Shown here: positions 47,901-50,900 of the stretch, piece after piece | Numbering within the stretch: position 1 is the first letter of the stretch | Layout of the letters: each line of letters begins with the position of its first letter | Assembly: GCA_035221665.1 (NCBI GenBank) | Contig: CM069156.1 | Coordinates: forward strand, 23,436,001 to 23,500,000 | Direction of reading: 5' to 3' | DNA from: Okamejei kenojei | Lineage: Eukaryota | DNA: 64,000 bases | Program-made: the position numbers

Positions 47901-50900
47901 CAGTGATTAGAAAATGAAGGAGATTGAGAAGCCTTGGTAAAATTGAATTGTTACTTATTTTTAATTTTTTACAAAGAGAACAATCTGCGCATGCGCGGTT
48001 TAAGATTTTTTTTTTAAACGCCGGCTGACTGCCTACCCTGAGTAATTACTCACGGCACGTGCCTGGGATTTATATTTATATATATATATATATATAAATA
48101 TAAATCCCAGGCACGTGCCGTGAGTAATTACTCAGGGTAGCAGTCAGCCGGCGTTTAAAAAAAAAAATCTTAAACCGCGCATGTTTTATAATAATATATA
48201 TATATATATTATACAAATATACTTGGCTTGAGAGTTTCTGGTTAAACTATGGGCAGAGGTGCCTCCAAAATAGTACTAATTCACTGAGGGCGCAGCCCCG
48301 AAGTGAATGTACTATTTGGAGGCACCGAGGCCCATAGTTTAAACCAGAAACTCGAAATAAGCCAAGGATTTTGTTTTTATATTTGGGATCAAACATTTAC
48401 AAGAATAATTGCTTACCTTAAGTTGTTTACAAATTTACATCGCGCGCTATACTCCCGAGTGAAGTAGAGAAATTATAAACGCAAGCGGAGAGCGGGAGAT
48501 TTTCCGAAAATGCCCTTTCAGCAAGATCGCCCGCTGAAAGGGCATTTTCGAAAATCTCCCGCTCTCCCTCTTGCGTATAATTTCTCTCTACTTTACTCGG
48601 AGTATAGCGCGCATGTAAATTTTGTAAACAAGTTCAATCGTCTGCTCGATACGAAGATGGCGGCTCCAGTACTAGCGATTTGGTCAGTTTTTACTGACGA
48701 AGATTTGATGACTTTATTACTTTCAGTGGATAGTGAAAACACGCAAAAACAAATCAAATATGGAATGTCAGTTTTTCGGCAATTTTGTTCGGAGATGGGG
48801 TTAAAATTACAATTGAGCAGATTTTAGGCCTCGAAACCTTGAAGGAATCTTGTCACAGTTCAAACGCTGGAGCGCGAAACAAGAAGGGAGAGCTGTACAC
48901 GAAGAAGTCAATCAAGCGATTCGGTTTGCGCTTCAACGCCAATTTTAGAAACCAGAGGAGTGACATTGTGAAACTGAGCAATTTTCTCGTTCTCACAAGA
49001 TTTTTAAGGCTCTTCTGTAAAACTGAAGACCAGCGGTAAGGCCAATGTAAAGCATTACCCCCCTATCACTAATGATGATATGGCACTTATCCAAGCCAGT
49101 CTCAATTTAAACACGGCTGTTGGTTGCAAAGAAAGTGTTTTCTAGATACAAAGATATACTTTGCAAACCGAGGAATGGAAATGTGAGACAGATGAAAGGT
49201 GAGGATTTTGTTCTTCATGTGGAAGGTGACATTGAATACTACACTCTTCGTGACATGCATACCAAAACCATCAAACTGATGAAGAGGAAAGTCAAGGAGG
49301 ACAAATGCATGCTCTCAAAGGAAACCCAAGGTCCCTGTTATGAACATGAAAAATTACTTATCCAAATTAAACCCTCTCTGTGAGTGGATGTTCAGAGGCC
49401 AAAACAGACTGTTTCTGTTAAAGTCTGACCGTGGTACGCCAATTCACCTTTGGGGAAATGCACCTCTCGCTAACATGACAAGTGTCATCTGTGAAGCTGC
49501 TGGTTTTTCAAAACATTATACGAATCATTCTTGCGACAACTAGCATCACTTTGCTAGACCATGCAGGACATGCATCTAGAGATATTATGTCTGTATCATC
49601 ACCGTTCTGAGACCTCGATAAAGAATATGCACGTTACCTTGAGCATACCAAGCGCCAGATGTCTGACACCCTGTCTGCAATTCATCCTGATCAACCATCA
49701 ACATCAGATGATAAAGAAAATGCCATTGAAGGTGATGGTGCAGATTTTGCGATTGGGGGATCAATCAAACAGTCCCCAACTGAACGTTAAAGAATTGTCG
49801 ATCAACATCCACAACATACCACACGTCAGCACAACACAACCGGAGCGGATTTTTAGAACAATGAACATGAACCAGCAAAATCTCCAGCCCCACAATACCA
49901 TTTCCATGCCGTTGTAAATTTTTTACAACAATTACCAGCATAACAAAAAACAAACAGATGTAAATATTGTAAATAGATGTGAAACAATGGTTTGACTTTT
50001 CAAGAAGTTTCCCTGAAACACTTGATTTCATTGAATTTATTCTTGTTTAAATGGCTTGTTTAAATGTTTTGATCGCAAATATAAAAAAATACCTTGGCCT
50101 TATTTGAGTTTCTGGTTAAACTATTTGCCCGGGCATGAAATTATTTTATCAGCGGCGATCTCCCGACGAAAGCGGCAGAGTTGGAGTCAACTGCATCGAG
50201 ACGAGAGGTGGCGCTGTAGCCGTGCAGCGCGAGAGTTCCCTTACATATGACATGATTTATAGAATTGCTATTTACAAAATATATGTTTGTAAATAGTACA
50301 TCGTTGGATCAGCGTATCTAAAATATTATTATATCAAATCACGAACGCTCTCTCGACCAAATCGCTGGAGGATAAATGTTTGATCCCGAATATAAATATA
50401 TATATATATATATATATGTAATCAAGGTTAATATGGGACCCACAGTGTCAGACTGGGGAATAGCAGGAAACAACAAAAATGATGGATGAGTGGGGAGCAC
50501 TGCAAATATTCTAAAGACAACAGATGGCTACTTTCAAACAAAAAGGGAAAAACTGGTAACAATTCCTTCCTAAATGTGACTAGATACTGTAAAAAACGAA
50601 CGACCTACATTCAGGTGTTCTTTTGAAAAGAGATGTCTGCAGAGATAATGGATTTATCGGATTAAGTTTTTCCAACGCTCACCAAGTTCCAGGAGGGTAC
50701 CACCATATTGCAAAAACACAAATATTCAAGGAGGCACGGGAAAAAAAAAGCAGGAAACTATAGGCCAGATAACTCAATAGCTACTGTTATGTTGCCAGAA
50801 TCCACAACCAACATGAAATTAAGTGAGTCATTTCAAAAAATGTAATGCAATCAAACAAAGTCAATGTGGTTTTGACAATTGAGTTATTTGTGGAACTAAG

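Follow-up and report, generated by a model that had tools for sequence, protein, structure and literature searches.

A 64,000-nt stretch of Okamejei kenojei DNA (GCA_035221665.1, contig CM069156.1, 23,436,001-23,500,000 of the forward strand), referred to here as the window and numbered by its own positions, carries two elements whose only gene encodes a tyrosine recombinase (YR): E1 at 18822-21125, an intact relative some 27 kb from E2 that served as the comparator, and E2 at 48210-50394, the subject of this analysis. We put at about even the chance that E2 is a dead, internally rearranged copy of a second CryptonA-type family, inserted in (AT)n, in which a block of the interior (S) underwent an inverted duplication and then a deletion, and in which a folded-junction end architecture is preserved. 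On its own, E2 would be an ordinary dead, rearranged copy; its value lies in providing a second, independent instance of the layout seen in E1. The family of E2, called family 2 below, is represented here by this one copy.

In the notation used here, L is the left end and l its complement, R and r are the outer and inner arms of a hairpin near the right end, and b is the 3' untranslated region (UTR). In the canonical layout, l and r are the reverse complements of the left and right ends, respectively; r pairs with R to give a ~160-nt hairpin, and [l r], the junction copy, corresponds to an internal complementary region (ICR). Hairpin energies are those of single-stranded DNA folds, compared with shuffled sequence. 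The features of E2 and its flanks are as follows.

48194-48209, no strand: left flank, (AT)n-rich, the presumed target microsatellite; Tandem Repeats Finder (TRF) reports period 2 at 48194-48221
48210-48222, minus strand: right-end terminal 13-mer; the minus-strand reading ends ...GTATATTTGTATA, the same as the E1 right end
48210-48377, minus strand: subterminal hairpin, with R at 48210-~48291, the apex, and r at ~48292-48377
48376-48399, minus strand: l, the complement of the far terminus, abutting the inner arm and forming with r an ICR-like junction copy
48400-48419, minus strand: b_end, the last ~11-15 nt of the 3' UTR, then the putative deletion junction with the foldback
48420-48522, plus strand: F1, inverted duplicate of F2; on the minus strand, a putative remnant of the direct copy of block S
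48523-48532, no strand: 10-nt spacer, the putative pivot of the fold-back duplication
48533-48656, plus strand: F2 and the 22 nt before the ATG, gene-proximal 5' leader, CpG-rich
48657-~49935, plus strand: YR pseudogene (Crypton, DUF3504-type); its alignment to the protein P0007 reaches ~49932
49936-50054, plus strand: 3' UTR (b), with a perfect 13-nt tandem duplication at 50042-50066
50055-50124, plus strand: second junction copy, consisting of l (50055-50078) and the first ~46-57 nt of the inner arm (r_half), in an E1-like position after the gene
50125-50372, minus strand: z, 248 nt without detectable relative, adjoining the left terminus
50373-50394, minus strand: L, the left terminus, its border placed at ~50392-50394 by alignment with the end of E1 as defined by an empty site
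50390-50417, no strand: right flank, (AT)n (TRF)

Both outer ends of E2 look like true ends, as judged from the terminal 13-mer, the complementarity of L and l, and the presence of (AT)n on both sides. The 13-mer TATACAAATATAC occurs exactly at 48210-48222 (plus strand) and 21110-21122 (minus strand) only, with one more site at 1 mismatch; this count of 3 compares with 0.09 expected in the 64-kb window and was reached in none of 100 shuffles. An earlier note on this DNA had equated the E2 terminus with the right end of E1, which the exact match bears out, and had taken the 13-mer for the E1 terminus itself, which does not hold, as the empty site of E1 puts the true right end 1-3 nt beyond it. 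At the other end, 50373-50396 is complementary to 48376-48399 at 23/24 positions (96%), as the note had also stated in essence, and with up to 3 mismatches allowed this 24-mer was found exclusively at these two sites in the window (0.00 expected). Both borders lie inside (AT)n tracts, at 48194-48221 and 50390-50417; with the insertion lying within (AT)n, the length of a terminal repeat is not definable there, and the E2 flanks have no second copy in the window that could be used as an empty site. No terminal inverted repeats (TIRs) were found in E1 or E2, the only pair spanning the ends of E2 being the 24-nt l/L pair, of which l is internal.

The predicted fold of 48205-48400 reached -60.5 kcal/mol, compared with -16.6 ± 3.0 kcal/mol for shuffled sequences (z = -14.5; none of 200 as stable), which agrees with the hairpin reported earlier at 48213-48374, and its arms align with 70 matches, 7 mismatches and 8 gap openings. 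In addition, the second ICR with half a hairpin that had been described after the gene was recovered: 50061-50129 is complementary to 48329-48399 over 73 columns (85%), with a local score of 50.5 against 13.4 ± 2.4 for shuffles (0/500 reached it), and aligned with 48329-48413 the second junction copy shows 74 matches, 7 mismatches and 9 gap openings.

The same elements of layout were found in E1, whose features are listed below.

18822-21125, plus strand: E1, 2304 bp, with borders taken from a paralogous empty site
18821-18831: L, the left end
19195-20604, plus strand: intact open reading frame (ORF) of 1410 nt and 469 aa, the single ORF between the ends
20954-20964: l, an inverted 11-mer directly before the hairpin
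~20965-21123: hairpin

E1 sits within the 3' end of a reversed L1, and a second L1 copy (~8.1-8.9 kb) supplies the paralogous empty site at 8449-8451. Alignment of the two L1 copies gave ATTAACCAGT-G-CGGAAATAA for the empty site and ATTAACCAGT[ATATCCC...GTATACTA]CGGAAATAA for the occupied one; TA borders E1 on both sides, and nothing else is duplicated. The empty site CCAGT-G-CGG shares only T with the E1 ends, or TA if one substitution is allowed. E1 reads L - 5' region - YR gene - 3' UTR - [l r] - loop - R. Its 11-mer TATATCCCTTC has only two occurrences in the window, the left end and an inverted copy at 20954-20964 (0.02 expected), and its hairpin folds at -45.4 kcal/mol (z = -11.2). E1 has no inverted pair linking its two ends, no direct repeat pairs like those of E2, and no counterpart of the 103-nt foldback.

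E2 keeps the E1 layout on the minus strand, with L at 50373-50394 and b_end-l-r-loop-R at 48413-48210. An ICR is thus present in each element, consisting of an 11-nt l plus the inner arm in E1 and of a 24-nt l plus the inner arm in E2. The outer arm of the E2 hairpin is of the terminal type, TATAC-AAATATAC, like the end of E1, and the B|L junction of E2 is of the internal type, TTTGTTTTTATAT, to be compared with TTTGTTTTATAT in the internal copy of E1; therefore, the outer ends are taken to be canonical on the minus strand. Two other origins of the arrangement were considered and rejected. A circularly permuted unit, left by a tandem or rolling-circle copy, does not fit the B|L junction, which has the internal form (TTTGTTTT(T)ATAT, matching the internal copy of E1) and not the terminal one; a hairpin-primed extension product is set aside because the half arm, too, has the internal form.

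When R was joined to L in silico, the stem extended beyond the joining point, where a small patch stayed unpaired. The joined ends gained 11 base pairs in E1 (-45.4 to -54.4 kcal/mol) and 21 l:L pairs in E2 (-58.2 to -72.6 kcal/mol). Since the joined-end stem continues onto l in both elements, [l r] represents in each family an inverted copy of the two ends as joined. This geometry was kept on sequence that has changed almost throughout. E1 and E2 resemble each other at the nucleotide level only in the coding region (57.8% over 1064 columns) and at the arm bases, where just ~13-20 nt are conserved; a global alignment of the two 3' ends scored 28 against 9.2 ± 2.8 for shuffles, the ends driving the score. 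The earlier claim that the stems are unrelated held as far as they are almost so, and full unrelatedness was not demonstrable, the hairpin interiors giving a local score of 14.5 against 9.5 ± 1.9, which 9/300 shuffles reached. With recombinases 47% identical, essentially unrelated stems and the same geometry, the geometry is argued to be functional. The layout shared by the two families lends real support to a functional junction copy, as the note had proposed from the same architecture in changed sequence.

The recombinase genes place both elements among the Cryptons. The E1 recombinase matches PF12012 (DUF3504) at E = 4e-8 (33.9 bits, cut-off 29.7) and PF00589 (Phage_integrase) at E = 1.9e-7 (31.4 bits, cut-off 27.1). 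In the extracts of the cited papers on which we draw here and below, DUF3504 is matched by Crypton recombinases and not by DIRS/Ngaro recombinases, and by this criterion of Kojima and Jurka the product of E1 is classed as a CryptonA-type recombinase (PMC3212892). A protein search returned 107 proteins at E <= 0.001 among 4264 candidates, the named relatives being echinoderm and mollusc 'KIAA1958-like' or 'ZMYM2-like' proteins; the closest relative of E1 is P0001, with 73% identity.

E2 is, by its sequence, a second, divergent Crypton-type element with the YR as its sole gene, in line with the earlier proposal. In frameshift-tolerant, frame-corrected codon alignments, the E2 gene is identical to P0007 (intact, 432 aa, with PF12012 and PF00589) at 353/405 codons (87%; 22 frameshifts, 1 stop), to the sea urchin protein P0003 at 261/333 (78%; 16 frameshifts, 2 stops) and to the E1 recombinase at 156/329 (47%; 15 frameshifts, 2 stops). 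Because its recombinase is 87% identical to the intact P0007, E2 is attributed to a real second family with living relatives, and PF12012 is assigned to it indirectly through the same identity. The gene cannot be called an ORF, as it had been, since 15-22 frameshifts interrupt it. The longest frame is at most 119 aa, the protein similarity found is solely to recombinases, and Pfam returned 0 families in the seven plus-strand frame pieces scanned. A search for a closer intact relative of the E2 N-terminus, in which longer proteins were admitted, yielded 11 candidates, none at E <= 0.01. The alignments of E1 and P0007 show NRGME, HSLR, GH(K/R)S and the tyrosine in IK(H/N)Y, and the same motif stretches are present in E2, broken by frameshifts at ~49178, 49529, 49599 and 49624. 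These motifs may correspond to the catalytic R-H-R-Y residues. No reverse transcriptase (RT), RNase H, methyltransferase, gag or DDE transposase ORF or similarity was found inside 18822-21125 or 48210-50394. The CpG observed/expected ratio of the E2 gene is 0.64, close to the 0.61 of the intact E1 gene, despite the 22 frameshifts. P0001 and P0007 come from contigs of at most 2321 and 2126 nt, about one element length, and may represent either whole transcripts or copies of unit length; for a canonical family-2 unit ~2.0 kb is predicted, compared with 2304 bp for E1.

The interior of E2 departs from the E1 order. Its gene lies on the plus strand, 3' of the full hairpin, and is directed away from it, as the note had reported, whereas the E1 gene points towards its hairpin. 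On the plus strand the order is R'-loop-r'-L (48210-48399), ~11-15 nt of b' (48400-~48413), F1, the spacer, F2-ATG-gene-b (48533-50054), l-r_half, z and l_term (50373-50394). On the minus strand it reads L - a* (the complement of z) - [inverted S] - spacer - [first 103 nt of direct S] - b_end - l - r - loop - R, where S is defined as F2 - gene - b - l - r_half (48533-50124, 1.6 kb). The foldback with arms of ~100 bp that had been noticed before spans 48420-48634 (224 aligned columns, 85.7%) and folds at -100.1 kcal/mol; F1 and F2 align with 96 matches, 7 mismatches and 7 gap openings, and the arms meet at the 10-nt spacer. The r_half segment breaks off 46-57 nt into the inner arm. On the plus strand, 48210-48250 is also a direct repeat of 50080-50124 (45 columns, 82%) and 50061-50091 of 50373-50402 (31 columns, 84%), and E2 contains three L-type and three R-type segments in all.

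The extent of the true 3' end was read from the homology of the two internal junction copies, which runs ~11-15 nt past L into the 3' UTR. Both copies have CAAGAATAA(T)T after L, allowing for the 13-nt tandem duplication at 50042-50066, while the terminal L diverges immediately past 22-24 nt; therefore, 48210-~48413 is read as a full 3' end with its UTR tail on the minus strand. The tandem duplication itself, CTTGTTTAAATGG in 1.9 copies, spans the border of the 3' UTR and the second l and is missing from the inverted copy at 48376-48413. From its position, CpG content and length, z is probably the L-proximal part of the 5' region (a*). The CpG observed/expected ratio is 1.54 in z (GC 0.44), 1.63 in the E2 leader (48400-48657) and 1.17 in the E1 5' region, as compared with ~0.6 in the genes and 0.35-0.78 in the 3' parts, and z, F2 and the 22 nt before the ATG add up to ~380 nt, near the ~370 nt of the E1 5' region.

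This parse keeps one part of the earlier proposal, namely that both true ends remain and that the interior is partly duplicated; in place of a simple inversion, it favours an inverted duplication of S plus a deletion. In a first step, a fold-back would have generated an inverted duplicate of S placed directly before S. For such a duplication the template must be switched twice, at the pivot and again within the inner arm of the hairpin, the latter being an expected stall point for a fork or copying enzyme. In a second step, the 1.6-kb palindrome would have been trimmed by a ~1.4-kb deletion of most of the direct S, with the deletion junction in a 10-12-nt similarity patch whose partners are AAGTTGTTTACA and AAGTGTTTCA. 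Long palindromes tend to lose one arm, and fold-back inverted duplications arise from replication template switching of the type of fork stalling and template switching or microhomology-mediated break-induced replication (FoSTeS/MMBIR). E2 resembles such events in that the inverted duplicate meets the direct copy at a 10-nt spacer, a breakpoint lies in a hairpin-forming repeat and the putative later deletion lies in microhomology; for E2, both chromosomal replication and the copying of a transposition intermediate are possible settings. Template switching is a plausible cause, as a fold-back with a 10-nt turn and a second switch in the hairpin arm would be its expected signature. Switching could have occurred at a stalled fork or during the copying of an intermediate, and it may have taken place before insertion, in a progenitor or intermediate, or later in place. 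Snap-back at the junction of the half arm and z was insignificant (144/1000 shuffles).

The position of the breakpoints bears on whether the recombinase itself flipped the interior, by recombination of L with the inverted internal junction copy in the manner of Flp/FRT and with the ends kept. Inverted copies of the recombination site do exist within the element, and the orientation of the gene relative to the hairpin is opposite in E2 and E1. However, such a flip should break the element precisely at the cores of L and l|r and should duplicate nothing. All observed breakpoints lie away from the cores of recombination sites: one (~48414-48420) is ~15-20 nt within the 3' UTR, another is at 48523-48532 and a third falls 46-57 nt along the inner arm; the ICR and 103 nt of leader are duplicated. 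We consider this origin very improbable.

The inverted block also has to be judged as a possible second element, inserted in or beside a resident copy in the opposite orientation and followed by deletions. An internal copy of the joined ends would be a plausible target for an incoming circle, DIRS-1 is reported to prefer insertion into other DIRS-1 copies (PMC7192593), and three segments each of the L and R types are present. Against this, an L-a* start and a complete hairpin end are both missing from the inverted block, whose 5' limit coincides with the centre of the foldback, a coincidence unexpected for an independent insertion. Moreover, the 248 nt beside the outer L are unlike the gene-adjacent leader (70/300 shuffles reached the score), and at least three deletions would be required. 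An origin from two elements is thus improbable; breakpoints off the site cores, duplicated material and an inverted block without termini together argue against both recombinase inversion and nested or adjacent insertion.

It is also improbable that nothing was scrambled and that family 2 normally has this layout, as a hybrid of a DIRS-type inverted junction copy and an Ngaro/PAT-type split direct repeat. On the plus strand, B1-A2 does repeat the joined ends B2+A1 in direct orientation, which is the arrangement of split-direct-repeat elements (PMC8969392), and the Ngaro/PAT/VIPER arrangement (A1-internal-B1-A2-B2) resembles E2 in having an internal joined-ends copy, with 50055-50124 direct to the outer ends. 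However, A2 and B2 are separated by 248 nt and not adjacent, the half arm ends abruptly, the 103-nt foldback has no counterpart in E1, and the gene-ICR module is in E1 order but inverted relative to the ends. E1 and E2 further differ from Ngaro/PAT/VIPER in that E1 has no direct copy and neither has a reverse transcriptase.

Several observations weigh against an inverted duplication and deletion in a family-2 element. The homology of the junction copies beyond L is short, and the extension alone was reached by 18/500 shuffles. In local alignments in both orientations, z had no significant similarity to the E2 leader or the E1 5' region: 70, 39, 234 and 9 of 300 shuffles reached the scores (70/300 for z against the E2 leader), as did 281/300 and 11/300 in control alignments of the leader with E1. 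The canonical order, the complement of z and then F2, is a prediction for a family known from one copy, and the plus-strand repeats can also be read as split direct repeats of the form A1...B1-A2...B2. The differences between duplicated arms are rich in indels, with mismatches to gap openings of 7:7 for F1/F2, 7:8 for the hairpin arms and 7:9 for the junction copies, and transitions make up 5/21 of the mismatches between arms. The gene, at 87% protein identity, has 22 frameshifts and 1 stop; this excess of frameshifts could be local consensus error, which would weaken the argument from age against an artefact. Furthermore, a single-stranded intermediate, a circle and binding by the recombinase are parts of the model that we infer only, and a DIRS-like RNA route is argued against by E1, whose AATAAA-terminated messenger RNA would lack the ICR.

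Because repeat pairs elsewhere in the window have 1197 mismatches to 217 gap openings (5.5:1), the indel-rich and transition-poor differences between arms also favour an assembly or long-read artefact, in whole or part, from chimeric or fold-back reads or poorly polished palindromes. Three long inverted repeats lie in 650 bp (47990-48183, 48206-48382 and 48420-48634), the arms of the neighbouring palindrome differ by indels alone with 0 mismatches, and a gene with 22 frameshifts and 1 stop is 87% identical to an intact protein. Many of the E2 frameshifts adjoin short homopolymers, and the indels in the arms and gene reflect either decay rich in indels or local errors of the consensus, in a palindromic region that is difficult to polish. 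The duplicated arms, on the other hand, are not identical copies, carrying 7 mismatches each per ~80-100 nt (91-93% ungapped identity); they are short and interleaved, unlike whole-read foldbacks; the layout agrees with E1 in detail and has (AT)n borders; and the 1410-nt ORF of E1 and the L1 ORFs are intact, so the assembly is not generally error-ridden. Taken together, a pure artefact is unlikely.

The end architecture was further compared with those of known systems. As an end criterion for Cryptons we took a short terminal direct repeat, of 4-6 bp in fungal families and with none reported in animal families, and no TIRs. In the extracts available, animal Cryptons are described as lacking terminal repeats, and an origin of CryptonA from DIRS-like elements is said to be not completely ruled out (PMC3212892); a 2022 curation guide tells Cryptons apart solely by a short direct repeat at the termini (PMC8969392). 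Like CryptonA elements as presented in extracts of PMC3212892 and of the 2026 Glomhopper paper (PMC13465315), E1 and E2 have a single YR gene with DUF3504/PF12012 and PF00589 (E2 via P0007) and show no reverse transcriptase, TIRs or long direct repeats. They differ from CryptonA as described in their ~160-nt subterminal hairpin with an inner arm that runs into the complement of the other end, a feature not mentioned in the extract of PMC8969392.

This arrangement has the geometry of the DIRS-1 ICR. The first 33 nt of the DIRS-1 ICR complement the start of the element and the last 55 nt its end; retrotransposition requires the ICR, and its intermediates consist of single-stranded complementary DNA, for the most part linear (PMC7192593). 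DIRS-1 shares with E1 and E2 a segment inside the element, close to its right end, that is complementary to the start in its 5' part and to the end in its 3' part, equivalent to an inverted circle junction (PMC7192593, PMC8969392), together with a tyrosine recombinase and no target-site duplication beyond a short shared sequence. Unlike DIRS-1, E1 and E2 lack a reverse transcriptase, RNase H, methyltransferase, gag and long inverted terminal repeats; the ICR-like segment in each lies directly against the right end, giving a hairpin, and their recombinase is of the DUF3504 (Crypton) type rather than the DIRS type (PMC3212892). No account of a hairpin or ICR in Cryptons was found in the extracts of the literature searched, where the term ICR refers to DIRS, although curated element listings could still show such ends. 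A hairpin with an internal copy of the joined ends has so far been described in these sources only for DIRS retrotransposons, and it would be new for Cryptons.

The layout points to a single-stranded step in transposition, by analogy with folded recombination sites and within the model proposed here. If R were joined to L, the stem would continue over the junction onto l, and a single strand would fold into a duplex copy of its own recombination site; alternatively, [l r] would splint the two ends of a linear single strand. The recombinase would then exchange strands at TA, and an integrating strand with its R|L site paired to [l r] would leave L ... l-r-loop-R. We know of no single-stranded form of any Crypton. 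A DIRS-like RNA route is disfavoured, because the AATAAA of E1, which ends at the stop codon, lies upstream of the ICR and because neither element has a reverse transcriptase.

Folded sites of this kind are known in bacteria. The attP of CTX phage is formed on a single strand by a 150-nt hairpin, into which two inverted sites separated by ~90 nt fold (PMC3089051), and more generally CTX attP(+) and integron attC have inverted half-sites ~90-150 nt apart that fold and present a duplex site to a tyrosine recombinase (PMC3089051, PMC3442271, PMC4792948). The likeness to E1 and E2 comes from predicted folds only: a folded strand, once integrated, would leave a hairpin with its inner arm running into the complement of the other end. 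The CTX and integron systems differ in being bacterial and in using host Xer recombinases or the integron integrase. It is a rather doubtful but specific extension of the model that the recombination site of this CryptonA clade would be the junction-spanning hairpin, with R|L paired to [l r], and not a plain double-stranded circle junction, and that E2 would be a snap-back by-product of copying a single-stranded intermediate and not a chromosomal accident. If true, this would provide a eukaryotic counterpart of CTX phage attP(+) and integron attC, and CryptonA and DIRS would be tied by a shared cis-acting apparatus and a single-stranded intermediate. The architecture offers a concrete, testable cis-element for Crypton transposition, bearing on how ends are recognized and joined, and it bears on the question of CryptonA-DIRS-like kinship raised in PMC3212892. 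Under the inverted duplication and deletion proposed above, E2 would also exemplify how the palindromes of an element invite fold-back rearrangement.

The 5' region of E1 (~370 nt) contains two tandem 39-nt units at 18916-18993, each with CTGCGCATGCTC at its end, a motif that may resemble an NRF1-type site. The region is CpG-rich, at the observed/expected ratio of 1.17 given above, and with its 39-nt units it looks like a promoter.

The window as a whole is transposon-rich animal DNA. An L1-type long interspersed nuclear element at ~4.9-8.9 kb has Pfam matches to Exo_endo_phos and RVT_1, and a Gypsy-type element around 17.7-22.7 kb (17674-22711) has matches to RVT_1 and RNase H. The latter is the site of a three-deep nesting, with E1 in the reversed L1 and the L1 in the Gypsy-type element: the host L1 (18410-18821 and 21126-21456) is 94-97% identical to the L1 at 8122-8858 and lies between the gag/protease-like ORF and the RT ORF of the Gypsy-type element. 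Low-stringency BLASTN of the non-coding parts of E1, E2 and the palindrome beside E2 found no matches outside these elements in the window, and Rfam gave 0 matches at the gathering score on 47500-51000.

A ~2.6-kb repeat is present in two copies, 30679-33279 and 59643-62242, which are 72% identical. Its ORFs at 60018-60979 and 61666-61977 are tentative candidates for DIRS/Ngaro-type RT/RNase H and recombinase; Pfam does not confirm this, with 0 families in two ORFs of the copy at 59.6-62.2 kb. The E1 recombinase has only a weak tblastn match to this repeat at 33112-33282 (E = 0.61), and no ends shared with the recombinase-like repeat were found in E1 or E2.

Two further inverted structures lie to the left of E2. 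A 194-bp near-perfect palindrome with a (TA)n centre, at 47990-48183, is 26 bp away; its arms align over 196 columns at 98% with 0 mismatches and indels only, and its sole resemblance to E1 or E2 is the TA tract. Possible explanations are a fold-back element, a palindromic duplication that arose recently at the AT-rich tract, and a fault of the assembly. Further to the left, 47202-47369 and 47477-47660 form an inverted repeat pair (185 columns, 77%), which may represent the ends of another transposon.

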